Part shown: positions 7,184 through 64,000 of the stretch, piece after piece
How the letters are laid out: every line of letters starts with the position of its first letter
How positions within the stretch are numbered: position 1 is the stretch's first letter
Assembly (NCBI GenBank): GCA_041661765.1
Contig: JBAZTV010000002.1
Location: 203,279-267,278 of the forward strand
Length of the DNA stretch: 64,000 nucleotides
Reading direction: 5' to 3'
Source of the DNA: Candidatus Shapirobacteria bacterium
GTDB taxonomy: Bacteria; Patescibacteriota; Microgenomatia; UBA12405
Program-made: the position numbers and the translations under genes
The notes under the pieces: generated by a model
Told to the model about the DNA's origin: nothing
Database searches by the model: none
The model's input: the letters and a program-made list of their open reading frames with translations, nothing else

Positions 7184-8332
7184 TTAATTAACCGTTTGAT
7201 TTTTAGTACGAACACTCAGTTCTTCAACAATTAGTCTAATAAGTTTTTTAGCTTTAATTTCGTTTTTTTTAATAGAAATATTCCAATCTAATCCTGGCCC
7301 AGTATTTCCTTCCAAAAAATAAGTATTGCCATTATTACTAATAATAAAATCCAAAGTAAAAAGAGAATGTTTTTTATTTAAAAGTTTGGCAATTAAATTT
7401 GATTTGGTTATTAATGATTGAGGAATTTTACTTAAGGATAAGTAAGTTAATAAACCACCTTGATGTTCATTACAACGAAATTCACCTGGTTTTGCCGTTC
7501 TAATATATGACTGAATAATTTTGCCATTAAGATAAATCATTCTAATATCAGTAGAAGCAAGACTATTTTTATAACTGAAACCTTTATCAAATTTAGCAAA
7601 AGGCTGAATAATATATGAAATATTATTATTTTTATTAATAACAGCCAACATCTCTTCTGCTTGGTCAATTTTAAACTTATGAATGTGACGTCCACCAGCT
7701 CCATATCGATTTTTCATAACAATATCATCACTAAAATCTGTCGAAGTCGGATGTTTAAAAGTCAATTCAGATAAATTTTTACAATCATTTTTAACACTTT
7801 TAAGAGAATCCCCATTTAACATAATGGTTGGAATTGAATGTTTTGACAATTCTTCGTAAGTTTTATGCTTATCAAAAAATAAACTAAATAAATTAGGATC
7901 ATTAAACGGTTTAATTTCAGATAAAGAAAATAATAATTGACGACGAGCCTTACCAATATTTCTTGTTGGAGAATATTTATCAAAAATTAAAGAGGAATAA
8001 CAATGAGAATTAACCTTGCTCCAAGTTTTGTTTTCAAATTGCCAATAACTACTACAATGCCCAGCTCCAATAATATCTGCTGAAGTTGTAAAAGCAGCAG
8101 TTAATTTAAACTTACTACAAATTTCTAAAAAGTAACCATAAACAAGATTATAGATGGCATTTGAAGAATTAAGAGGAAATGGAGTTTGTTTATCCACTGA
8201 AGTATTAGACGCACTAAAAGCCATCTTCTGGTTGTAGACAATAAGAACATCAAAACAAGTTAATTTGCTCATAAATTTTAAATAATGACTACCAATAACA
8301 GACACAAAAATCAGAGTATCAAAACAAAACAT
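7184..8332 (-). CDS. ATP-grasp family ligase (RimK/GshB-like)
   Basis: ATP-grasp C-terminal motifs: YIIQPF...DIRMIYLNGKIIQSYIRTA.PGEFRCNEHQGG...LDFIISNNGNTYFLEGNTGPGL. Confidence 0.5.
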   Translation of the reverse strand: MFCFDTLIFVSVIGSHYLKFMSKLTCFDVLIVYNQKMAFSASNTSVDKQTPFPLNSSNAIYNLVYGYFLEICSKFKLTAAFTTSADIIGAGHCSSYWQFENKTWSKVNSHCYSSLIFDKYSPTRNIGKARRQLLFSLSEIKPFNDPNLFSLFFDKHKTYEELSKHSIPTIMLNGDSLKSVKNDCKNLSELTFKHPTSTDFSDDIVMKNRYGAGGRHIHKFKIDQAEEMLAVINKNNNISYIIQPFAKFDKGFSYKNSLASTDIRMIYLNGKIIQSYIRTAKPGEFRCNEHQGGLLTYLSLSKIPQSLITKSNLIAKLLNKKHSLFTLDFIISNNGNTYFLEGNTGPGLDWNISIKKNEIKAKKLIRLIVEELSVRTKNQTVN

Positions 8333-45588: not shown

Positions 45589-46623
45589 ATGAAAAATAGC
45601 TCAAAAACATTCTTAAGTATCAACTTTGGCTGTCGTGTTAATTCAGCTGAAACTAATCAATGGTCCCAAATTCTAATTAATCAAGGACATACCCCTCTTG
45701 TCAAAGAGGGGCAGGGGAGATTGGATTTAATCTTAGTTAATACCTGTTCCATCACCAAAAAAGGAGATTTAGAATCACTTGGCAAAGTCCGATTCCTTCA
45801 TCAAAAATACCCACAGGCTAAAATTTTAGTTACTGGTTGTGCAAATCTTGAAAAAATAAAAAACATTCCCAATGTCTTTATTTATCAAAATAATCAAAAA
45901 GAAGAATTATTAAAAGACTTAAATTCTTCTTATACTCCAAAAATAAAAGACAAATTTAGCCACACCAATCGTTTTTTATTAAAAATTCAATCAGGTTGCA
46001 CTCAATTTTGCTCCTATTGTATCGTCCCTTTTAGGCGCCAAAATTTATGGTCTCTAGAAATAAATAAAGCAGTTGAAACTGTTCAAAAAGCAATTAAAGA
46101 TGGCTATCAAGAAATTATTATTACCGGAGTTAATATTGATCAATACCAATATAATTTTTCTGATCTAATTAAAAACATATTAGAACAAACTGATGTAAAA
46201 TTAATTAGTTTTGGATCTATTCCTTTAAATTGCATTGACCAAAAATTTATTAATTTACTTAAAAAATACCCCAACAGAATTTCCAATTTTCTCCACATTC
46301 CCATTCAATCCAGCTCCAACAAAATCCTCAAACTCATGAACCGCCCTTATGACTCCAAAAAAATTATAAATACTTTTAATAAACTAAAAAAATTACCTCT
46401 CTCCTTCGGAACCGACATCATTGTTGGCTTTCCTACTGAAACTGAAGATGATTTTCAAAATACTCTTAAAGTTTGTAAAAACATTGGTTTTTCCAAAATT
46501 CACACTTTTAAATATTCACCTCGTCCCAACACTAAAGCTAAAATTATCCACAACACCAATCCTAAAATTTCCAAAGAGACATTAAAATCTCGTTCCCAAC
46601 AAATCCGAGATCTCATAAAATAA
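45589..46623 (+). CDS. Radical SAM methylthiotransferase, MiaB/MtaB-like (no obvious TRAM domain)
   Basis: UPF0004 N-terminus (INFGCRVNSAETNQW...LILVNTC) and radical SAM CxxxCxxC (SGCTQFCSYC). Contains family 1 element copy A in-frame. Confidence 0.65.
   Translation: MKNSSKTFLSINFGCRVNSAETNQWSQILINQGHTPLVKEGQGRLDLILVNTCSITKKGDLESLGKVRFLHQKYPQAKILVTGCANLEKIKNIPNVFIYQNNQKEELLKDLNSSYTPKIKDKFSHTNRFLLKIQSGCTQFCSYCIVPFRRQNLWSLEINKAVETVQKAIKDGYQEIIITGVNIDQYQYNFSDLIKNILEQTDVKLISFGSIPLNCIDQKFINLLKKYPNRISNFLHIPIQSSSNKILKLMNRPYDSKKIINTFNKLKKLPLSFGTDIIVGFPTETEDDFQNTLKVCKNIGFSKIHTFKYSPRPNTKAKIIHNTNPKISKETLKSRSQQIRDLIK
45692..45728 (+). repeat. GC-rich palindromic element, family 1 copy A (in-frame in the miaB-like gene; encodes PLVKEGQGRLD)
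   Basis: CCCCTCTT-GTCA-AAGAGGGG followed by CAGGGGAGATTGGATTT. Confidence 0.65.
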
Positions 46624-47667: not shown

Positions 47668-48765
47668 TTATCTCCCAAAATACACTTCCATCTCATCAAA
47701 CACTTGAAAAGTAAATGAAACTTCCTGTCCCGGAAATCTTGCATTTTTACCCCAAATATAGGATTTATTAACATCATCTCTCATTTGATTTGAAATTCTT
47801 TTTAAAACATCATCCAATGTACAATTATTTTTAAAAATTAATGGATCTTTATAATCTGCCTCTGCTGACCTTTCTTCTTTTAAATAAACTCTTACTAACC
47901 CTAACCCTTTCCATATTTTTTCTTTAAAATCATCAACTCCCACCCCTCTATTTGCATTCATTAACACCAAGTCCCTCTTGTCAAAGAGGGATTTAGGGAG
48001 ATTTTTAATTAAATCAATTTTTGTCACTACTTCCACTGACGGCATATATTTTATTGACTTTGACATAGCATCAACCAATTTATCAATTCCTTCGACTTTT
48101 TCACCTATTTGAATAATTGCATTACCTAAACCCATTTCTTTAGCAACTTCTGTCACTGTTTCTTTTTCAAAAGATTTATATGGATCAATTACCTGAATTG
48201 ACCCTTTATGTGTCCTGTGAATTGAAATTTTAGATGGCCTGGTATTTAACCTCATTCCTGATCTATAAAGCTCATCTTCCACTTGTTTCAACCATTGAAT
48301 CCTTTTAATATCAGTCATTAAAACTACTAAATCACTAGCTCTTATAACTGATAAAACTTTTTTTCCAAAACCTTTATTTTTAGCTGCACCTTCAATAATT
48401 CCCGGCAAATCCAAAATCTGAATTTTAACTCCCTTATATTCCATCATTCCCGGTACCACTCCCAAGGTTGTAAAGTCATAATTTCCAACTCTCGACTCAG
48501 CATTTGTCACCGCATTCAATAAAGTCGATTTACCCACACTTGGCAACCCCACCAACACCACTGAAGCATCACCTGAATGTTTAATTGCATATCCAACACC
48601 ACCGCCACCACCTTTTAAATTACCACCATTTAACTCATCATTAAGTTTGGCTAATCTAGCTTTCATTATTCCATGGTGATGTTCCGTCCCTTTATGGTAC
48701 GGCAAATCCCGAACTTCCTTCTCTATTCGAGAAATCTGCATTTTAATAATTTCTTCCTTAGTCAT
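47668..48765 (-). CDS. Obg/DRG-family GTPase with C-terminal TGS-like domain
   Basis: G1 LVGLPSVGKSTLLN, G3 DLPGIIEGA, and a C-terminal RVYLK TGS-like region. Contains family 1 element copy B in-frame, in reverse orientation. Confidence 0.65.
   Translation of the reverse strand: MTKEEIIKMQISRIEKEVRDLPYHKGTEHHHGIMKARLAKLNDELNGGNLKGGGGGVGYAIKHSGDASVVLVGLPSVGKSTLLNAVTNAESRVGNYDFTTLGVVPGMMEYKGVKIQILDLPGIIEGAAKNKGFGKKVLSVIRASDLVVLMTDIKRIQWLKQVEDELYRSGMRLNTRPSKISIHRTHKGSIQVIDPYKSFEKETVTEVAKEMGLGNAIIQIGEKVEGIDKLVDAMSKSIKYMPSVEVVTKIDLIKNLPKSLFDKRDLVLMNANRGVGVDDFKEKIWKGLGLVRVYLKEERSAEADYKDPLIFKNNCTLDDVLKRISNQMRDDVNKSYIWGKNARFPGQEVSFTFQVFDEMEVYFGR
47973..48006 (+). repeat. GC-rich palindromic element, family 1 copy B (in-frame within the minus-strand GTPase gene; encodes KSLFDKRD)
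   Basis: CCCTCTT-GTCA-AAGAGGG followed by ATTTAGGGAGATTTTT. The 18-mer is identical to copy A. Confidence 0.65.
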
Positions 48766-55373: not shown

Positions 55374-55724
55374 ATGAAGAATATTCTCCTCATTATCACT
55401 GATAATAAAACTAGACAATTATATCACGAGATTCTCCTTTCTAAAGGCGTTGAGGTCATTCCCATAGCCGATCTATCGACCGCCATAATGCTTTTAAGTC
55501 TAAACCAATTTAATTTAGCAGTTTTAGACGCCGACCAAAATCCAACAGAAGTTGAGGTTTTTCTAAGACTTCGTCAAAAACATCACCGTCTTTCCAAGAC
55601 TAAATTTATAATTTTATCTCAAAATAACGATTTCAATCCAAAAATAACAAAGATGGATTTCGTTATTCACATTTCCCAAACACCCATCAAAGATATCATT
55701 AATCAAATCGAACAATCAATGTAA
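55374..55724 (+). CDS. Stand-alone response-regulator receiver-like domain protein
   Basis: CheY-like pattern ILLIITDN...LAVLDAD...K. Divergent from the XRE regulator. Confidence 0.45.
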   Translation: MKNILLIITDNKTRQLYHEILLSKGVEVIPIADLSTAIMLLSLNQFNLAVLDADQNPTEVEVFLRLRQKHHRLSKTKFIILSQNNDFNPKITKMDFVIHISQTPIKDIINQIEQSM

Positions 55725-55740
55725 TTTTTAGTACAATTTA

Positions 55741-56382
55741 TTGATGAGGAAGATTAAGTCACTGCCAATAAATCTTAGACCACGAGAAAGATTAATGAAA
55801 TATGGAGCTGATATTTTAAATCTTGAAGAACTATTAGCCGTAATTCTAATTACCGGCAATAAACTCTTACCACTCTCACAAATCAGCACTAAAATTTCCA
55901 ATATAATCAAGAAAAATAATAATCCAAAAGATGAATTATTAAAATTAAAAATTGGCCAAAGTAAAACCGCTCAAATTTTAGCCACCCTAGAAATCGGAAA
56001 AAGATTATTTAGCCAAAATATAACAACCATAAAGTCAGACAAACAAGTATTTGGACTCTCTTATGAAATTATTAACAAAGAGAAAGAATCCGTCCTTTGT
56101 TTTTATTTAAACGGTAGAGGAGAACTTCTTCAAAAAGAATTAATCGCCATTGGCTCACTCAATAAAGCTAACCTTTTACCTCGAGATATTTTTACTCTAA
56201 TCAAAAATTTACCCATAGTTTCAATAATTTTGGTCCACAATCATCCATCTGGAAACTTAGACCCTTCAAAAGAAGATCTAATTTTTACTCGACGAATTAA
56301 ATTAGCCGGCGATCTTATCGGTATTAAATTGCTCAATCATTACATCATTTCCCAAAACGGCTGGAATAAAATCATTTTTTAA
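55741..56382 (+). CDS. radC: RadC-like JAB/MPN domain protein
   Basis: C-terminal JAMM motif HNHPSG...D, with an N-terminal HhH-like region. Confidence 0.75.
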   Translation: MMRKIKSLPINLRPRERLMKYGADILNLEELLAVILITGNKLLPLSQISTKISNIIKKNNNPKDELLKLKIGQSKTAQILATLEIGKRLFSQNITTIKSDKQVFGLSYEIINKEKESVLCFYLNGRGELLQKELIAIGSLNKANLLPRDIFTLIKNLPIVSIILVHNHPSGNLDPSKEDLIFTRRIKLAGDLIGIKLLNHYIISQNGWNKIIF

Positions 56383-56508
56383 TATAAAATACCCATCAGA
56401 AATGAAAAATTTTGTTTACAGTACTAACAAAACTACATCGCCCAACAGGGCATAACCTTTTTGCTTTGATTGGGCTTTCCACTTTCTTGTTAAAATACTT
56501 ATATAACA

Positions 56509-56536
56509 TGTAGAGACGCATCATGATGCGTCTCCC
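56509..56536 (+). repeat. GC-rich palindrome, family 2 copy 1 (TGTAGAGACGCATCATGATGCGTCTC), 13 nt upstream of the thrS ATG
   Basis: Perfect 22-nt palindrome at 56513-56534. It shares the 11-mer TGTAGAGACGC with the copy at 58314. Confidence 0.65.
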
Positions 56537-56548
56537 AATAAAAAAATT

Positions 56549-58306
56549 ATGTCACAAAACAATCAAAATTCAGAACTTCAAAATATCCGTCATTCAGCCG
56601 AACATGTCTTAACTCAAGCCATGCAACGACTTTTTCCCAATAAATTTTTAATGGCCATGGGACCAGCCACCGACGATGGTTTTTATTTTGATTTCGAACC
56701 AGTAGAGGATTTTAAAGTTAGCGAAAATGATTTTCCTCAAATCGAAGCCGAAATGGCCAAAATTATCAAAGAAAATTTACCCATAATTAAGGAAGAAATT
56801 AAATTAGAAGACGCTAAAAAATTATTCGCCGACAATCCTTATAAAATGGAATGGCTAAACTCTATCAAAAATAGGGGAGAGGTAATTACTATTTACAAAA
56901 CTGGCGATGAATTTACTGATCTCTGCGCCGGTCCTCACGTCCGCTACACCAAACAAATCAAAGCTTTTAAACTTTTATCCATCGCTGGCGCCTATTGGCA
57001 TGGTGATGAAAAAAATAAAATGTTAACCCGTATCTACGGCACCGCTTTTGAATCAAAAGAAGAATTAGAAAAATATTTAATCAATATTGAAGAAGCCAAA
57101 AAACGCGACCATCGCAAATTAGGCCCACAATTAGGCATTTTCTTTATTGATGAAACAGCCCCTGGCATGCCCTATTGGCTTCCCAAGGGAACTATTATTA
57201 TCAACGAATTACTTAAATTTTGGCGCTCTGAACATCAAAAAAGAGGCTATCAGGAAACTATCACTCCTCAATTAAACAAAAAACAGCTCTACGAAACTTC
57301 CGGACACTGGGATCACTATAAAGAAAATATGTTTATTTGTGACATGGGTGAAAATGAAATTTATTGTCTCAAACCAATGAATTGTCCCAATGCTATGACT
57401 ATTTTTAAACAGGGAATTCATAGTTACCGGGAACTTCCTCTTCGTCTTTCAGACTGCGATGCTCTCCATCGTCATGAAAAATCCGGTGAGTTAAGTGGCT
57501 TACTCCGTGTTCAAAAATTTTCTCAAGACGATGCTCATATTTTTGTTGCCGAAGATCAAATTGGCGAAGAATACAAAAGAATTTTAGAAATTGCCAAACT
57601 TTTTTACTCTATTTTTGGAATAGAATTTAAAATCCGTCTCGGCACCCGACCAGACGATTTTATGGGTGATATTGAAACTTGGAACCGTGCCGAAAAAGAG
57701 TTGGAACAGATTTTAATTGATAATAAATTTGATTATTTCATTGGTGAAGGCGAAGGTGCTTTTTATGGTCCAAAATTAGACATTCTCATGGATGATTGTC
57801 TCGGTCGCCAATGGCAAACCGGCACCATTCAATTAGATTTTCAACTTCCTCGTAATTTCGAATTAAAATATACCGACAAAGATGGCCAAGAAAAAACCCC
57901 AGTTGTTATTCACCGAGTTATCTACGGTTCTCTCGAAAGATTTATGGGTATTTTAATTGAACAATTCGCTGGTGCCTTTCCAATTTGGATTTCCCCAGTT
58001 CAAGTCAAAATAATACCCATTACTGATGGTCAATTAGAATATGCCCAAAAAATAGGCGAATCTTTAAGAGAAAATGACATCCGAGTCGAAGTCGACGATA
58101 AATCTGAAACCATGCAAAATAAAATAAGAAATGCTGCCGGCGAAAAAATTCCCTACATGATTATTGTTGGTGGTCGCGAAGCCGAAAATCAAACTATTTC
58201 CATCCGCCAACGCGATGGCCAAGATCTCGGAACTATGGATTTAAAAGATTTTATTTCAAAAATAAAAGACCAAGTCGCTTCCAAATCTTTAAATTTAATC
58301 AAATAA
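56549..58306 (+). CDS. thrS: Threonyl-tRNA synthetase (no N-terminal TGS domain)
   Basis: N2/editing-domain start (RHSAEHVLTQAMQ), class II core, C-terminal anticodon-binding domain. 585 aa. Confidence 0.85.
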   Translation: MSQNNQNSELQNIRHSAEHVLTQAMQRLFPNKFLMAMGPATDDGFYFDFEPVEDFKVSENDFPQIEAEMAKIIKENLPIIKEEIKLEDAKKLFADNPYKMEWLNSIKNRGEVITIYKTGDEFTDLCAGPHVRYTKQIKAFKLLSIAGAYWHGDEKNKMLTRIYGTAFESKEELEKYLINIEEAKKRDHRKLGPQLGIFFIDETAPGMPYWLPKGTIIINELLKFWRSEHQKRGYQETITPQLNKKQLYETSGHWDHYKENMFICDMGENEIYCLKPMNCPNAMTIFKQGIHSYRELPLRLSDCDALHRHEKSGELSGLLRVQKFSQDDAHIFVAEDQIGEEYKRILEIAKLFYSIFGIEFKIRLGTRPDDFMGDIETWNRAEKELEQILIDNKFDYFIGEGEGAFYGPKLDILMDDCLGRQWQTGTIQLDFQLPRNFELKYTDKDGQEKTPVVIHRVIYGSLERFMGILIEQFAGAFPIWISPVQVKIIPITDGQLEYAQKIGESLRENDIRVEVDDKSETMQNKIRNAAGEKIPYMIIVGGREAENQTISIRQRDGQDLGTMDLKDFISKIKDQVASKSLNLIK

Positions 58307-58314
58307 TTTAATCT

Positions 58315-58342
58315 GTAGAGACGCCATGCATGGCGTCTCTAC
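58315..58342 (+). repeat. GC-rich palindrome, family 2 copy 2 (GTAGAGACGCCATGCATGGCGTCTCTAC), 9 nt after the thrS stop
   Basis: Perfect 28-nt palindrome. Not followed by a T-run. Confidence 0.65.
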
Positions 58343-58368
58343 TCTAAACCCCATCTTATTCTTAAAAC

Positions 58369-58397
58369 TTGACTTTTTACTAGTTATGTCCTATAAT
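58369..58397 (+). promoter_or_regulatory. Consensus sigma70-type promoter TTGACT-N17-TATAAT
   Basis: The -35 lies at 58369-74 and the -10 at 58392-97. It drives ORF 58576 through a roughly 175-nt leader containing a GCAGCTGC palindrome and a GAGGTG RBS. Confidence 0.55.
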
Positions 58398-58575
58398 GTG
58401 CTAAGTAGTTTATAAAATTAGCTTTAATAAACTATTTGTTCTTTAAAAAATTAATCCTATAAAACTTTAAAATCGCTTGTTTCTGCTGTGCTATCTTGTA
58501 TATCAAATAAATTATCGATGTACAGGCTAGCGCAGCTGCATCGCAATGCGACTTTAATGTTATGAGGTGTTTAGT

Positions 58576-59406
58576 ATGTTTAAAAAGGGTTTAATGGGTT
58601 TATTGGTTCTATGTATGGTGTTTGGCTTATCAAGTATTGCTTTTGCAAGTAATGGAAATTCCGTTAATTGGAAAACCAATACAGTGTCACTGTCAGCAGA
58701 CGATTTTTATATCACTGTTGATGGAACAAGTTATGTCCCTAACGCTACCACAATAATCAATTCCGACCCTGGCGATCCAGAATACACCACTTTTGAAACC
58801 ACTTGGTTCCAAAATGGAGTTGAAATGAGAATGAATCTGTATTTTATGGCTAATTCTCAAAATTATTGGATCTCAGAAGCCAGAATTTACGACGGAAAAA
58901 ACCCAGTTAATTGGATAGTTCTTGATAATATCAAACTATTTCAATCACCACTGGAAAAGACCGTTAGTAAAGATTTCTTTTCTGTCAGCTTTAGTAATAG
59001 TGCCACGATTAATTTTAAAAATTTAAAATTAGAAGTGTTTCCCAAGGTTAAAAAACTAGTAGAAGAAAACGAAATTTCAATCTGCTCTGAATTATTTCTT
59101 GAAAAAGGAACCATTATTAGAGCATCAACCATTGCTTTTCTGACTTGTCCCGAAGGCGACGGCAAAACAACCCCAAAATACACTACATTGTTTTCTTCCG
59201 ATAAAAACAACATTATTGTCGTTTTGGATGAAGACATGCAAGTCTATTTAACCGAAGGAGGATATGTCTGTACTATTTTTGATGATGTCGATGAATATTT
59301 ATCAACACTTAAAAACCGATGCGACATCACTCCTAAAGCGGTTGTCCATATGGATAATCAAAAATCCCAGTTCATTCAACTTGTACTATCTCTTCTCCAG
59401 GATTAA
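58576..59406 (+). CDS. Secreted hypothetical protein, compositionally atypical
   Basis: Start moved to the ATG at 58576 (RBS GAGGTG 5 nt upstream); the track starts at a GTG at 58567. Signal peptide. A-ending codon bias. Confidence 0.5.
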   Translation: MFKKGLMGLLVLCMVFGLSSIAFASNGNSVNWKTNTVSLSADDFYITVDGTSYVPNATTIINSDPGDPEYTTFETTWFQNGVEMRMNLYFMANSQNYWISEARIYDGKNPVNWIVLDNIKLFQSPLEKTVSKDFFSVSFSNSATINFKNLKLEVFPKVKKLVEENEISICSELFLEKGTIIRASTIAFLTCPEGDGKTTPKYTTLFSSDKNNIIVVLDEDMQVYLTEGGYVCTIFDDVDEYLSTLKNRCDITPKAVVHMDNQKSQFIQLVLSLLQD

Positions 59407-59412
59407 TCTCTA

Positions 59413-59470
59413 AAACCGGCAGGTATTTGCGAACATTTTGTTCAAAAATATTTCTGCCGGTTTTTTCTTT
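59413..59470 (+). terminator. Rho-independent terminator (AAACCGGCAG ... CTGCCGGTTT + TTTTTT)
   Basis: 10-bp perfect stem, a 31-nt loop containing GAACATTTTGTTC, and a T-run. Confidence 0.7.
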
Positions 59471-59586
59471 TCTTTAGGTGAAATTTTAAACGAAGTGATA
59501 AAATTTTCCTAAAGACAAGACTCCGATTTATCGGAGCTATATTTTAATGATTTTCTCCTTCATTTCTGGTAAAATAGACAAATTAT

Positions 59587-60141
59587 ATGAGTAGTTTCAA
59601 AACTAATACCAATCGCAAATTTTACAAAATCAATCAGTACATTAATGCGCCAACTATTCGTCTTCTTAGTGACGACGGTAAACAAATTGGTATTGTCGCT
59701 CTTGAAGAAGCCCGAAAACAATCTTTTGAAACTGGCTTAGATTTAGTCGAAATTAACGGTAAAGCTGTTCCACCAGTCGTTAAACTAATTAGCTTTACCA
59801 AATTCAAATATCAAGAATCTAAAAAACTTCAAGCTGAAAAGAAAGGTATTAAGGGGGGAGACCTAAAAGAAATTCAAATGAGCCCATTTATTGGTGCTGG
59901 TGACTATGAAACTAGAATTAAAAAATCTCAAAAATTTTTAACTAGTGGAAATAAGATTAAATTAAGTGTAAAATTCCAAGGTCGCCAAATGAATCATCCG
60001 GAATTTGGCCACAATCTAATTGCTAAGGTTAAAACCGATTTACAAGATTTTGGAACTCCCGAAGGTGAGGCCAAATTAATCGGAAAAAGGTTAATGCTTA
60101 CATTCACACCTTCTAAAAAAAGCGGAGGAGTAAAAAAATGA
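59587..60141 (+). CDS. infC: Translation initiation factor IF-3
   Basis: INQYINAPTIRLLSDDGKQIGIV N-terminal domain and a C-terminal domain. The true start may be a non-ATG codon upstream. Confidence 0.8.
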   Translation: MSSFKTNTNRKFYKINQYINAPTIRLLSDDGKQIGIVALEEARKQSFETGLDLVEINGKAVPPVVKLISFTKFKYQESKKLQAEKKGIKGGDLKEIQMSPFIGAGDYETRIKKSQKFLTSGNKIKLSVKFQGRQMNHPEFGHNLIAKVKTDLQDFGTPEGEAKLIGKRLMLTFTPSKKSGGVKK

Positions 60142-60347
60142 AAAAACAGAGTAAAAAAATGAAAATCAAGAAATCTGTTTCTAACAGATTTGAAGTAACC
60201 AAAACTGGTAAAGTTTTGCGTATGTCATCTTTCAATCGACATTTACGTCGAAAGAAAAGTAAAAAACAATTACGCCGACTTAAAGGCAAACACCCAATTG
60301 CTAACGCATTGGCTATTAAAGTTAAAAAATTATTAGGTAGACTATAA
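60138..60347 (+). CDS. rpmI: 50S ribosomal protein L35
   Basis: Basic 60-69 aa protein, MKIKKSVSNRFEVTKTGKVLR, in infC-rpmI-rplT order. Confidence 0.8.
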   Translation: MKKQSKKMKIKKSVSNRFEVTKTGKVLRMSSFNRHLRRKKSKKQLRRLKGKHPIANALAIKVKKLLGRL

Positions 60348-60353
60348 AATATT

Positions 60354-60698
60354 ATGAGAGTTAAAACTGGAACAGTTCGACGAGCTGCACATAAAAAAAT
60401 CTTAAAAGCCGCTAAGGGTTTTTGGATGACTCGTCACAAAAGATTTAAAGTTGCTAACGAAGCAGTTATGCACGCTGGTCAATACGCTTTTGTCGGCCGA
60501 CGTATTCGCCGCCGAGATATACGTCAATTATGGATCACTCGTTTAAATGCTGCTTTAAAACCATTCGAAATTAAATATTCTGCTTTCATTAATATGATGA
60601 AGGGTAAAAATGTCGAATTAAACCGAAAAATGTTATCCGAAATTGCCATTAATGATAATGCCACTTTTAAGTCCATCGTTGATTTTATGAAAAAATAA
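60354..60698 (+). CDS. rplT: 50S ribosomal protein L20
   Basis: MRVKTGTVRRAAHKKILKAAKGFW. Confidence 0.85.
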   Translation: MRVKTGTVRRAAHKKILKAAKGFWMTRHKRFKVANEAVMHAGQYAFVGRRIRRRDIRQLWITRLNAALKPFEIKYSAFINMMKGKNVELNRKMLSEIAINDNATFKSIVDFMKK

Positions 60699-60720
60699 GG
60701 GGACTTTTTTAAAAAAAATT

Positions 60721-60746
60721 AAAAGCCCCTGAGAAGGGGCTTTTTT
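60721..60746 (+). terminator. Rho-independent terminator after rplT (GCCCCT-GAGA-AGGGGC + TTTTTT)
   Basis: Perfect 6-bp GC stem, 4-nt loop, then six Ts. Confidence 0.85.
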
Positions 60747-60763
60747 AGTAAAATAAACCAACT

Positions 60764-61789
60764 ATGAATCAAAACTTGGAAGAAATTAAAAATCAATACC
60801 AAGCCAAAATTACCGACCTCAAAACCGACAAAGGATTAGAATCTTTAAGAATTGAATTATTTGGCCGCAACGGTTTGATTAATGATTTATTTTCCAAAAT
60901 TAAAGAAATTCCTAATGAAGGAAAAAAACAATACGGCGCCGATCTTAATCAATTAAAAACCGAACTAGAAGAATTATTTGTAGAGAAGCGCCGCCGGCAC
61001 GTCTCTACATCAAACCAAACGTCTCTACCTACAAAAGAAAACAAAAATATTTTTTCTTTACCAAAAATCGGCCATCTTCATCCTATTACCCAAACTGAAC
61101 GCGAGTTAAACGAAGTTTTTCGAAAACTTGGTTTCTCTGTTTACAATAGCCCCGAAATTGTCACTGACGAATTTAATTTCGAACGACTTAATGTTCCTCA
61201 AAATCATCCTGCCCGCGACATGCAAGACAGTATTTATATCAAAGAGCCAGAATACTTACTTCGTACCCAAACATCCACTATCGAATCATATTTATTAAAA
61301 GCCAAAAGCCAAGACCTGCCTATTCGTGCCGCTTTTCCAGGATCTGTTTTTCGAAATGAAAAAGTTAACCGTAGTAACCATTTCGTCTTTCATCAATATC
61401 AAGCTGTTGTCGTTGATAAAAATGTCACTATGAAAGATTTAATCGGTACCATGGATTTAATGTTTAAAACTCTCTATAGTTCTGACGTTGTCGTTCGTTA
61501 TCGCTGTAAATATTATCCTGAAGTCGAACCAGGTGTCGGTCCCGACATGCAATGTTTCAGTTGTCATGGAAAAGGTTGTCCACTGTGCAAATATGCTGGT
61601 TGGATTGAAATGGGCGGCAGTGGCATGATTCATCCTAAAGTTTTAGAAGCCGCCGGCATCGACTCTAAAATTTGGTCCGGGTTCGCTTTTGGCATGGGTC
61701 TCGACCGTTGGACCATGGCCCAAAAAAATATTAAAGACATTAGAACATTAATGGGTGGAAATTTAGCCTATAAACCCAACGAATTATGA
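60764..61789 (+). CDS. pheS: Phenylalanyl-tRNA synthetase alpha subunit
   Basis: Class II motifs in the C-terminal half (FRNE..., GMGLDRW). Contains family 2 element copy 3 in-frame. Confidence 0.85.
   Translation: MNQNLEEIKNQYQAKITDLKTDKGLESLRIELFGRNGLINDLFSKIKEIPNEGKKQYGADLNQLKTELEELFVEKRRRHVSTSNQTSLPTKENKNIFSLPKIGHLHPITQTERELNEVFRKLGFSVYNSPEIVTDEFNFERLNVPQNHPARDMQDSIYIKEPEYLLRTQTSTIESYLLKAKSQDLPIRAAFPGSVFRNEKVNRSNHFVFHQYQAVVVDKNVTMKDLIGTMDLMFKTLYSSDVVVRYRCKYYPEVEPGVGPDMQCFSCHGKGCPLCKYAGWIEMGGSGMIHPKVLEAAGIDSKIWSGFAFGMGLDRWTMAQKNIKDIRTLMGGNLAYKPNEL
60980..61030 (+). repeat. Palindrome, family 2 copy 3 (GTAGAGAAGCGCCGCCGGCACGTCTCTAC plus a second ACGTCTCTAC), in-frame in pheS (encodes VEKRRRHVSTSNQTSLPT)
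   Basis: Imperfect 28-nt palindrome (12/14 arm matches) with a 10-nt direct repeat 11 nt downstream. Confidence 0.55.
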
Positions 61790-63600
61790 AATTAATCTAT
61801 TCTCAACTTCAAAAATTCTTACCCGATCTAAAAATCGAACCACAACAACTCCGCGACGACTTAACCATGATCGGCCATTTTACTAATTTTTTTGAAGAAA
61901 TCGACAGTGAAATCGTTTTTGATCTAGACATTAAAGTCAACAGGGGAGACTGTCTCGGCTATTACGGCCTCGCCAAAGATTTATCCGTTTTTTACAACAT
62001 AAAATTAATTTCTCCCTTTCGTCAAAGGGAGATGCCCGAAGGGCAGAGGGATTTAGAAATTCTTCCAATCCAAATAACTACTGACAACGTCAAACGAGTC
62101 ATGGCTGTCAAAATTTCAAATTTTAAAAATAACTCTTCTCCTCAATGGCTCCAAACATTTTTAAAATGTCACAACACTAAATCCATCAATACTCTTGTTG
62201 ATTTAACCAACTACATCATGTTTTTATATGGCATTCCAAATCATGCCTTTGATACGGCCAAATCAACTGACAATTTAATTTGGGAAATGAATTCCAAATT
62301 CAAAGAATTCATCAGCCTCGACGGTTCCAAACTTTTTTTAGACAATAAAATTTTAATGATTAACAATCCCGACAAAACCCTCAGTCTTAGTTTTTGGGGA
62401 GGGGAGTCTTGTGCTATTGACTTAACCACTACTGAAACTATTATTGAATTAGCTATCTATGATCGCACTACTGTTCGCCAAAACAGCCGTCAATTAAAAT
62501 CCGTCACCGAAGCCAGTATTCGTCTTGAAAAAGATCTTGACTGCGAATTAATTCCCACCGCCTTTAATCACTTAGTTAATTTAATTTTAGAGAATTGTGG
62601 CGGCCAAATTAATTCTCAAATTTTTGATCATTATCCTCAAAAAACGAATTTACCTCAAATCGAATTTGACCCTAAAAAACCGTCCCTAGTTTCCGGCATC
62701 GACATCTCCACCAATTTTTCCCTCGACTGTTTAAAAAGATTAGACTGTCAAATAAACGGTTCAACTATAACTCCTCCAAGTCTCCGCAAAGACATTACTA
62801 TTGAAGCCGACCTAATCGAAGAAGTCATCCGTTTTTGGGGTTACCAAAAAATCCCTACCAATCAACCCTTAACTTTTAAAGAAATTTCCGACATTACTCC
62901 TAAAGAAATTTATTTAATCGAAAATCTCAAAGATCAATTAATTCAGCTCGGCTACGACGAAGTTTTAACCTGGCCTTTAATTACCAATTCAATTGATGAA
63001 AAAACTGTTATTAAAACCCAAAACAGTATTAATTCCGAGGCCGTCTATCTTCGTCAATCTTTAATTCCATCTCTAGTCCAACAACTCGACCAATATAATC
63101 GTTTTAAGTTACCAGAACCACAGTTTTTTGAAATCGGCAAAGTCTTTTTCAAAGATGGAAATAATTTTATTGAAAAAACCGCCTTAGGAATTTATAATTA
63201 TGATTCAGAAAAATTACAATTAGACATAAAAAATCTTAACCTCCCCCTTGTCAAAGGGGGACCGAGGGGGATTGATAACTTTGTCGAAATAATTTTAGAC
63301 GAATTACTTAAACCAGAAAAATATATCCCTAATCAGCAACAAAATAACGCCATCGAACTTACTTCACAAATAATTACTCTTGATGCCAATATTACTCTCG
63401 ACAACAAAGAAGATCCAATAAAATTAATTTTAAAATATTCTCAAATCATTAGTTCTAAATATCTTTGGAAATTAATCATCACTGATATTTATCAAGATCT
63501 TAAGACCAATAAATATCGCTATACTTTCCAAGCCTCTTATTTTAATTTGGATGACAAAACCGCCAAATCAATTCACCTAAAAACTTTTGATTTAATTTGA
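61786..63600 (+). CDS. pheT: Phenylalanyl-tRNA synthetase beta subunit (short form)
   Basis: B3/B4 and B5 region with a C-terminal anticodon-binding-like domain. 604 aa. Overlaps pheS by 4 nt. Contains family 1 copies C and D in-frame. Confidence 0.8.
   Translation: MKLIYSQLQKFLPDLKIEPQQLRDDLTMIGHFTNFFEEIDSEIVFDLDIKVNRGDCLGYYGLAKDLSVFYNIKLISPFRQREMPEGQRDLEILPIQITTDNVKRVMAVKISNFKNNSSPQWLQTFLKCHNTKSINTLVDLTNYIMFLYGIPNHAFDTAKSTDNLIWEMNSKFKEFISLDGSKLFLDNKILMINNPDKTLSLSFWGGESCAIDLTTTETIIELAIYDRTTVRQNSRQLKSVTEASIRLEKDLDCELIPTAFNHLVNLILENCGGQINSQIFDHYPQKTNLPQIEFDPKKPSLVSGIDISTNFSLDCLKRLDCQINGSTITPPSLRKDITIEADLIEEVIRFWGYQKIPTNQPLTFKEISDITPKEIYLIENLKDQLIQLGYDEVLTWPLITNSIDEKTVIKTQNSINSEAVYLRQSLIPSLVQQLDQYNRFKLPEPQFFEIGKVFFKDGNNFIEKTALGIYNYDSEKLQLDIKNLNLPLVKGGPRGIDNFVEIILDELLKPEKYIPNQQQNNAIELTSQIITLDANITLDNKEDPIKLILKYSQIISSKYLWKLIITDIYQDLKTNKYRYTFQASYFNLDDKTAKSIHLKTFDLI
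62012..62056 (+). repeat. GC-rich palindromic element, family 1 copy C (in-frame in pheT; encodes SPFRQREMPEGQRDL)
   Basis: CTCCCTTT-CGTC-AAAGGGAG, then TGCCCGAAGGGCA hairpin, then GAGGGATTTAG. Confidence 0.6.
63243..63279 (+). repeat. GC-rich palindromic element, family 1 copy D (in-frame in pheT; encodes PLVKGGPRGID)
   Basis: CCCCCTT-GTCA-AAGGGGG followed by ACCGAGGGGGATTGATAAC. Confidence 0.6.
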
Positions 63601-63709
63601 TTTTAACCAAACCAAACCTTTTTATTTTGTAAATATACACACATAATGCGTATTAGCAAACAACACTATTATCTGCTAAACATCTACAAATTTCTATATT
63701 AGCCTATCT

Positions 63710-64000
63710 TTAGGGAATAGTTATTCCTGTTGACGAAGTAGTTATACCAGTTGATACCACTGTTGTAGTTGGTATATAATCCCAAGCAGTATTAATTCCA
63801 ATTCGTGATTCTTTTTCAGTGCTATTTCCATCTTTATCTGTTGCCTTAAATTTAAGCACATGTGAACCATCCGATAAATCGTTTATAGAAGTTTCATAAG
63901 GTTTCTCTGTCCAAGTTTTTCTTTCCACCCCATCCACCCACATTTTTACTTCCGTAATTTTTTTAGTCGAGGTTGTTGTAACTCTAATATTAAATTCCTT
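63710..64000 (-). CDS. Secreted Ig-like (Big-type) domain protein. Partial: the N-terminus lies beyond the window edge.
   Basis: The minus-strand frame stays open to the window end, upstream of the track's Met. DGSHVLKFKATDKDGN is typical of bacterial Ig-like domains. T/S-rich tail. Confidence 0.45.
   Translation of the reverse strand, partial: KEFNIRVTTTSTKKITEVKMWVDGVERKTWTEKPYETSINDLSDGSHVLKFKATDKDGNSTEKESRIGINTAWDYIPTTTVVSTGITTSSTGITIP

Follow-up and report, generated by a model that had tools for sequence, protein, structure and literature searches.

The threonine--tRNA ligase gene thrS and the phenylalanine--tRNA ligase alpha subunit gene pheS of a Candidatus Shapirobacteria bacterium, a member of the Candidate Phyla Radiation (CPR), lie on a stretch of 64,000 nucleotides (nt) of DNA (assembly GCA_041661765.1, contig JBAZTV010000002.1, positions 203,279 to 267,278 of the forward strand), hereafter “the window”, in which position 1 is the first letter. 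Three short palindromes accompany these genes, one on either side of thrS and one inside the pheS reading frame. They had been read in a preliminary description either as a device acting on thrS translation or as a selfish palindromic element, and are treated here as copies 1 to 3 of a putative repetitive extragenic palindromic (REP) element.

The thrS–pheS Locus and Its Palindromes

The palindromes and the two genes are located as follows:
56510..56537, no strand: REP copy 1, in the thrS leader; 5' foot GTAG at 56510–56513, 3' foot degenerate
56549..58306, + strand: thrS, threonine--tRNA ligase, 585 aa (NCBIfam TIGR00418, 695 bits)
58315..58342, no strand: REP copy 2, perfect 28-nt double-foot palindrome GTAGAGACGCCATGCATGGCGTCTCTAC
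60764..61789, + strand: pheS, phenylalanine--tRNA ligase alpha subunit, 341 aa (NCBIfam)
60980..61008, + strand: REP copy 3, imperfect 29-nt double-foot palindrome GTAGAGAAGCGCCGCCGGCACGTCTCTAC, in frame in the PheS linker as VEKRRRHVST
61019..61028, + strand: duplicated right arm ACGTCTCTAC near copy 3; a decayed form is also present in the related loci L123 and L121

All three palindromes were confirmed by direct reading and by our own perfect-stem hairpin scan, which replaced a built-in inverted-repeat finder that was flooded by A+T-rich matches; copies 1 and 2 are perfect, and copy 3 is imperfect and has a duplicated arm, as had been described. The core of copy 1, GAGACGCATCATGATGCGTCTC (56513–56534), forms a perfect palindrome of 22 nt with GTA directly before it; the copy reads GTA-GAGACGCATCA followed by TGATGCGTCTC, and at its 3' foot CTCCCA stands where CTCTAC is expected. 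Its position upstream of the thrS ATG (56549) had been given correctly, with the spacing now measured as 14 nt instead of 13 nt. Copy 2, with the layout GTAG-AGACGC-CATGCATG-GCGTCT-CTAC, begins at the ninth base past the thrS stop codon (58304–58306), leaving a gap of 8 nt, and shares TGTAGAGACGC with copy 1; length, position and shared sequence all agree with the preliminary description. The pheS segment with copy 3 encodes VEKRRRHVSTSNQTSLPT and is in frame, as had been noted; it lies in the variable linker that follows the N-terminal coiled-coil domain.

The stems of copies 1, 2 and 3 comprise 11, 14 and 12 of 14 pairs, respectively, with RNA fold energies of −13.7, −21.6 and −15.4 kcal/mol (z-scores −4.8, −7.3 and −2.9). 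Both GTAG-type feet are present at copies 2 and 3, while copy 1 has the 5' foot only. The component motifs are enriched in the window, which has a G+C content of 32%: GAGACGC occurs six times against 1.0 expected (0 of 100 shuffles reach six), and GTAGAGACGC, at no more than one mismatch, seven times against 0.49 expected. The earlier remark that GAGACG resembles a BsmBI site is right as sequence, GAGACG being the complement of CGTCTC; no sign of restriction–modification was seen, although no test aimed at it was made.

Several known kinds of structure do not fit the copies. No T-run stands 3' of any of them and none was called in a terminator scan, which bears out that they are not simple intrinsic terminators. 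They are single palindromes, with neighbours 1.8 and 2.6 kb apart, and do not form the inverted REP pair with a short spacer that makes up a REP doublet forming hairpins (REPIN). Being 28–29 nt long and GTAG-footed, they also differ from Rickettsia palindromic elements (RPEs) and miniature inverted-repeat transposable elements, which would have about 70–300 bp and terminal inverted repeats or a CGTC tag.

Distribution of the Element in Other Genomes

When one genome per species was scanned for GTAGAGACGC-N0–12-GCGTCTCTAC, at least 120 loci were obtained, compared with about seven chance matches by our own estimate. A variant with ACGT arms, as in pheS, gave at least 120 loci in metagenome contigs, and a mixed pattern at least 120 loci in IMG/VR viral contigs; figures per 120 loci refer, here and below, to the matches listed in the respective scan. 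The general arms common to the three scans are GTAGAGACG[CT]-N6–10-[AG]CGTCTCTAC. The hosts in the genome scan belong to the Bacteroidota, Cyanobacteria, Chloroflexota, Acidobacteriota, Planctomycetota, Proteobacteria, Spirochaetota, Zixibacteria and others, with five CPR genomes among the matches listed (L039, L056, L077, L088, L120). A search for the motif beyond the window, as the preliminary description had proposed, thus found the arms in many phyla and not confined to thrS.

Most copies are 28 nt long. Their inner 8 nt comprise 41–51 different sequences per scan, and the centre is perfectly self-complementary in 79 of 112, 84 of 109 and 58 of 134 of the 28-nt copies, where random re-pairing of the halves gives 8–13; the 79 of 112, set against 8.4 expected, were obtained with 51 different centres. 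Conserved arms together with a co-varying centre are the signature of a hairpin and not of a double-stranded binding site. By a rough count, about one third of the copies lie inside long open frames and about one third overlap the 3' terminus of a long frame or follow it within 40 nt, with the remainder otherwise intergenic; as the same classes of site dominate elsewhere, the three positions in the window are typical of the element family. An extra half-arm is found within 40 nt of the copy in 35 of 344 cases (about 10%), versus 9 of 344 control windows, and the arm duplication in pheS is one such case.

A sequencing or assembly artefact was considered and is unlikely, given that the element is present in the isolate genomes of Calothrix PCC 7716, Hymenobacter perfusus and Flavobacterium spp., and that the same genes carry it in frame in JGI, ENA and NCBI assemblies. 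Among the 240 listed metagenome and viral loci, none resembling Shapirobacteria was found. A literature search for the 10-mer returned primer sequences only, and the motif is not in the supplementary files of Di Nocera 2013. The viral matches, at least 120 stretches, come from about 110 distinct contigs, often with several palindromes per contig.

Association with a Y1 Transposase

Clustering of the open reading frames (ORFs) of the 120 listed genome loci yielded, as the largest cross-locus cluster, a protein gene that overlaps or adjoins the palindrome. By tblastn, a related ORF is present in 10 of the 120 listed genome loci and in 9 of the 120 listed, independent metagenome loci (about 8%), and in the cases inspected it overlaps or adjoins the palindrome or contains it in frame. 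Two representative ORFs match the Pfam family Y1_Tnp (PF01797) of IS200-like transposases, i.e., single-tyrosine (Y1) enzymes.

Nine ORFs from L008–L101 were checked for motifs. The histidine–hydrophobic–histidine (HUH) motif is present in all nine, five of which have NHLH, a form outside the published NH[IFV]H; WQ is present in seven, and YIxNN[PV]/YIxxNP in eight, the one from L076 having been missed by the script and its YIINNP seen by eye. The order is NH[LFIV]H, mostly a REP-encoded peptide, WQ and YIxNNP, with peptides such as VETHGRASL or RRDAMHRVST standing between HUH and Y in most ORFs. This is the signature of TnpA_REP subclass 2.4, for which NH[IFV]H/WQ/YIxNNP motifs, “double foot” REPs of the form 5' GT[AG]G ... 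C[TC]AC 3', REPs in frame within tnpA_REP, and hosts among Cyanobacteria, Bacteroidetes and various other phyla have been described (Quentin et al. 2018, PMC6006769). Subclass 2.4 of these authors is group 4 of the REP-associated tyrosine transposases (RAYTs), which occurs in 17 bacterial classes, is rare in Proteobacteria, and has low-copy flanking 16-mers (Bertels et al. 2017, PMC5581495). The wider GTAG-tagged REP super-family has been defined by Di Nocera et al. (2013, PMC3733652), who also reported REPs within genes, including tRNA synthetase genes. In two further instances, L078 (4587–5771) and L038 (863–1603), a variable insertion region was seen, as noted for subclass 2.4.

Because the element is often inside the transposase gene, transfer of this gene carries the element along, and such co-transfer could explain identical arms in distant phyla. 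The same identity of 10-nt arms across phyla is what an origin of the hairpins in the host, independently at each site and under selection for RNA structure—as terminators lacking a U-tract or as mRNA stabilisers—would leave unexplained. The stable stems with maintained pairing and the third of copies at or just past the 3' ends of long frames would suit such a role; however, the GTAG/CTAC feet, the in-frame copies within genes and the link to a Y1 gene have no place in it, and a T-run is missing at each of the three copies in the window, which makes host-made RNA hairpins a very improbable explanation.

The Element in pheS and pheT of Related Genomes

Related loci were collected with PheS homologs of 85–90% identity (ten loci) and with ThrS homologs of 89–90% identity (three loci). 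The comparison of PheS N-termini suggested earlier covered the best 120 PheS homologs (at least 77% identity, including the window's own protein P0001); in 18 of them the linker, a region without other conservation, contains a peptide encoded by a REP, of the type VETxxxASL. At the DNA level there are two sites in pheS, one at the junction ...TTATTT–GTAGAG (window, L121, L123) and one four codons later (L125, L127, L130). At the first site, the three genomes have shared flanks and a decayed duplicated arm, while the centres differ outright, being AGCGCCGCCGGCAC in the window and CGTTGCATGCAACG in L123. As its decayed form in L123 and L121 shows, the duplicated arm is older than the split from these two.

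In pheT, a single site holds the element in L121, L125, L127, L128 and L130, where it is read in frame as RRDxxxxVST and shows four palindromic centres that differ from one another; it is absent from this site in the window, L123 and L129. The change from TTTTGCAAAA to TTCTGCAGAA at the pheT site is two-sided, keeps the pairing and is also synonymous, with GTT TTG CAA AAC and GTT CTG CAG AAC both encoding VLQN. A copy also lies between rplT and pheS in L125, L126 and L371. Overall, related loci of 3–21 kb hold zero to three copies at partly different sites, which suggests gain, loss or remodelling of the elements over the time that separates these genomes.

Palindromes of other kinds occur in the same lineage. 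A second family in the window, (T/C)CCYCTTGTCAAAGRGGG(A/G), probably the “family 1” of the preliminary description, has four copies (45692–45711, 47972–47991, 62011–62032, 63242–63261), each within a long ORF; SPFRQRE and PLVKGGP are the peptides encoded by the two pheT copies, at extra or divergent PheT residues with respect to seven relatives, and the one at 63242 lies a few codons from the pheT site of the relatives' GTAG REP. Between recG and rpmF of L123 (PheS 90% identical), positions 8041–8066 hold TAGGGGCCAGGCATGCCTGGCCCCTA, a palindrome with a different stem for which GTAG/CTAC feet are possible. This lineage may thus harbour two or more palindrome families of this kind.

The thrS Flanks and the Question of thrS Control

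Upstream and downstream of thrS, the comparison with relatives adds the following features:
56488..56496, + strand: extended −10-like TGtTAAAAT, putative thrS promoter, conserved in L128 and L129
56510..56548, + strand: about 39 nt (REP + CCAATAAAAAAATT), in the window only, between the conserved thrS leader and the ATG; boundaries approximate, by comparison with relatives
58369..58397, + strand: promoter-like TTGACT-17-TATAAT with 11 of 12 matches, just 3' of copy 2 and before an ORF of 279 aa

A REP is found on neither side of thrS in any of the six Shapirobacteria loci with this gene (L121, L128, L129, L371, L372, L373). L128 and L129 share the thrS leader of the window, ...gcccaacagggcata...tttgctttgattgggct...cttgttaaaata..., and in both the ATG follows about 14–17 nt past the conserved TGtTA(A/G)AAT (...cttgtta(a/g)aata...), where the window has about 39 nt more; this insertion is absent also from L121, L371, L372 and L373. 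The putative promoter was not called by the consensus promoter scan, as it is without a well-spaced −35 element; were it used, the REP hairpin would lie at about +8 to +32 of the mRNA.

These data bear directly on the proposal that the upstream hairpin is a thrS operator, similar in role to the Escherichia coli thrS operator or a T-box, with the downstream hairpin ending the transcript. A stable hairpin (−13.7 kcal/mol) that ends 14 nt before the ATG, together with a second one that starts 8 nt past the stop codon, makes the proposal understandable. However, both copies are missing beside thrS in six of six relatives, including the two that have the same leader without a hairpin, and the same element is also found within two other ORFs, pheS and pheT, and across hundreds of genomes unrelated to this one. 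Furthermore, there is no likeness to the anticodon arm of tRNA-Thr, and an Rfam search of positions 55500–64000 at E ≤ 1 gave no T-box, Thr leader or other relevant family, with four unrelated sub-threshold hits; neither an RNA family match nor conservation upstream of thrS, by which known thrS leaders are recognised, was thus found. That no Shine-Dalgarno sequence precedes thrS is correct, but it is uninformative as a pointer to control, because only 7 of the 53 long ORFs of the window have such a motif and its lack is genome-wide. Many of the window ORFs have a TAAAAT/TATAAT-like hexamer 8–14 nt before the start codon, which suggests that leaderless or very-short-leader mRNAs are the norm here. 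A thrS-specific translational operator is not supported, since the flanking copies are not conserved in relatives, and we hold it to be very improbable.

Effects on thrS may nonetheless arise as a by-product. Judging from the relatives, in which the leader is very short or nearly absent, the 5' copy would add a hairpin to it. The 3' copy could protect the 3' end of the thrS mRNA or, placed 8 nt past the stop codon, stall ribosomes; in E. coli, a REP near a stop codon reportedly lowers expression in this way (Liang et al. 2015).

A further idea, that thrS is a replaced cassette bounded by the REPs, was raised by the ThrS identity of only 64% to three relatives, but did not hold: only the catalytic core diverges, it does so in every pair of the four genomes compared, and the parts of the gene adjoining the REPs are 75–96% identical. 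ThrS itself is a mosaic. Over three pairs compared among the window, L121 (6975–8750), L128 (6576–8357) and L129 (6930–8693), the N-terminal ~200 aa and the C-terminal ~100 aa are 63–96% identical (75–96% for the window and L128), compared with only 21–62% in the catalytic core (window 57150–58050) and 61–64% overall in every pair; the neighbours InfC, RplT, PheS and PheT are 77–95% identical. A ThrS with the core type of the window is present at 89–90% identity in other metagenomes, and the pattern looks like a core-domain exchange between lineages.

Around the palindromes, NCBIfam confirms radC, thrS, infC, rpmI, rplT, pheS and pheT, and the names carried by identical proteins assign the window to Candidatus Shapirobacteria within the Patescibacteria/CPR. 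The thrS–infC spacer of the window (58307–59586) measures 1280 nt, compared with 9–11 nt in four relatives and 85 and 461 nt in two others, and contains a lineage-specific ORF of 279 aa (58567–59406) with a hydrophobic, signal-like N-terminus and no NCBIfam match. The corresponding spacer of L128 holds another small ORF.

Nature of the Element and Proposed Mode of Spread

On this basis, the three palindromes are very probably copies of a double-foot GTAG REP, of the class tied to TnpA_REP subclass 2.4/RAYT group 4, and not devices of thrS control. Of the two readings offered originally, the selfish palindromic element is therefore the one retained, in view of the same arms across phyla, the link to a Y1 gene, and the differences in site between relatives; the long stem, with pairing kept through sequence change, is as expected of REP hairpins. 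The element class itself has already been described; what is new is that its host is a CPR bacterium and that it recurs as an in-frame resident of pheS and pheT.

By analogy with E. coli TnpA_REP and IS200/IS605, the element—a hairpin of about 28 nt with a 5' GTAG foot and its 3' complement CTAC—would fold in single-stranded DNA, e.g., on the lagging-strand template, where an IS200-like HUH/Y1 enzyme would recognise the stem and the GTAG foot and, by a presumed chemistry of cutting and rejoining single-stranded DNA, seed new copies. A double-foot element would have no orientation, because both strands present the same substrate. Copies are predicted to persist only where they are harmless, i.e., in intergenic DNA, just past stop codons, or in frame in flexible linkers, with one frame per strand closed to them by the TAG stop codon within GTAG. 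Within this scheme, the copies flanking thrS would be recent, lineage-specific insertions and the pheS copy an older in-frame resident of a variable linker.

Several observations weigh against this assignment. Only three copies are present in 64 kb, all inside 4.5 kb, where classical REP families have hundreds per genome, and copy 1 is without a proper 3' foot. A homolog of RAYT/Y1_Tnp was not found by tblastn in the window or in L121–L130 (about 150 kb; L371–L373 not included), nor was a RAYT present in the five CPR loci holding the palindrome or, by tblastn, in any of the 120 listed viral loci; the cognate enzyme may be absent from this genome, and the RAYT association is a statistical one, confined to about 8% of the listed loci. 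The REP/RAYT papers cited contain no biochemistry of subclass 2.4. Finally, because filled and empty alleles at the orthologous pheS and pheT sites are similar in length, simple cut-and-paste insertion is not demonstrated.

The failure to find a RAYT in the window or the related loci searched, the low copy number and the similar lengths of filled and empty alleles would likewise be expected if the palindromes were orphan REPs, i.e., remnants of a RAYT invasion that was old or transient, or else arrivals by horizontal transfer, that are no longer mobilised by any enzyme here. Relatives would then differ by decay, deletion, gene conversion between copies and hairpin-templated repair with template switching, which keeps the arms symmetric, and it is indeed conversion or template switching that predicts orthologous copies with different centres but preserved flanks and duplicated arm. 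Against this stands the occurrence of copies at different sites—thrS flanks, rplT–pheS spacer, two positions in pheS, pheT—in close relatives with 85–90% identical PheS, so that repeated gain is needed; moreover, the enzyme search covered only a small part of the genome. We regard orphan REPs as unlikely, though as the alternative most to be reckoned with beside double-foot REPs spread by a Y1 enzyme.

Since the fixed sites in pheS and pheT keep their flanks but differ in centres that are still palindromic, it is conceivable, though improbable, that the hairpins are actively maintained in this ultra-small CPR genome and are not inert relics. Candidates for a hairpin-specific process are a Y1 enzyme exchanging the hairpin between its feet, or hairpin-templated repair, either of which would work even inside essential genes.

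Relation to Known Systems

With the double-foot REPs of subclass 2.4, the elements of the window share the GTAG/CTAC feet, the long perfect stem with a variable, complementary centre, the low copy number, the scattered occurrence over many phyla, the in-frame copies in genes, and—in other genomes—the location of identical arms within or next to a Y1 gene whose product has NHxH/WQ/YIxNNP motifs. They depart from what has been described for subclass 2.4/group 4 in their host, as Candidatus Shapirobacteria and the CPR are not named in those papers, in the lack of a cognate transposase in the window and the relatives searched, and in the one copy without a 3' foot. The GTAG tag, the hairpin, the location past coding sequences, the proposed mobilisation by a RAYT and the in-frame copies now and then found in genes, those for tRNA synthetases among them, connect them to the GTAG REP super-family and the classical REPs and REPINs of E. 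coli and Pseudomonas. Classical REPs, however, have one unpaired GTAG foot, imperfect stems and hundreds of copies, often in inverted pairs (REPINs or bacterial interspersed mosaic elements), whereas the window elements are few single copies in which the foot is paired on both sides.

Survival of selfish palindromic DNA in frame in essential protein genes is a trait in common with the RPEs, which are roughly 100–150 bp in size and are not known to have a linked transposase. In contrast, the window elements are 28–29 nt in length, carry GTAG feet and, in other genomes, are associated with a Y1 transposase; RPEs carry a CGTC tag (PMC3733652). The subterminal hairpins of IS200/IS605 resemble them in the combination of a hairpin with an adjacent short guide motif and in single-stranded recognition by a Y1 HUH enzyme, but bound an element that carries the transposase, while the hairpin in the window is the whole element.

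Biological Implications

The tempting reading of the locus as a new thrS riboregulator is thereby removed, and the element can be named instead. Double-foot REPs are extended to CPR bacteria; among the top hits of a literature search, no paper joined REPs with CPR/Patescibacteria. The same 10-nt arms recur over many phyla, and the elements reside in frame in linkers of aminoacyl-tRNA synthetases. For genome annotation this implies that peptides such as VETxxxASL and RRDxxxxVST mark a DNA element and not a protein motif. Many Shapirobacteria metagenomes contain orthologous copies in pheS and pheT, which together constitute a data set on the gain, symmetry and loss of hairpins. At thrS, one insertion may have equipped a formerly near-leaderless mRNA with a structured leader, which, if true, would provide a natural test of how insertions change expression.

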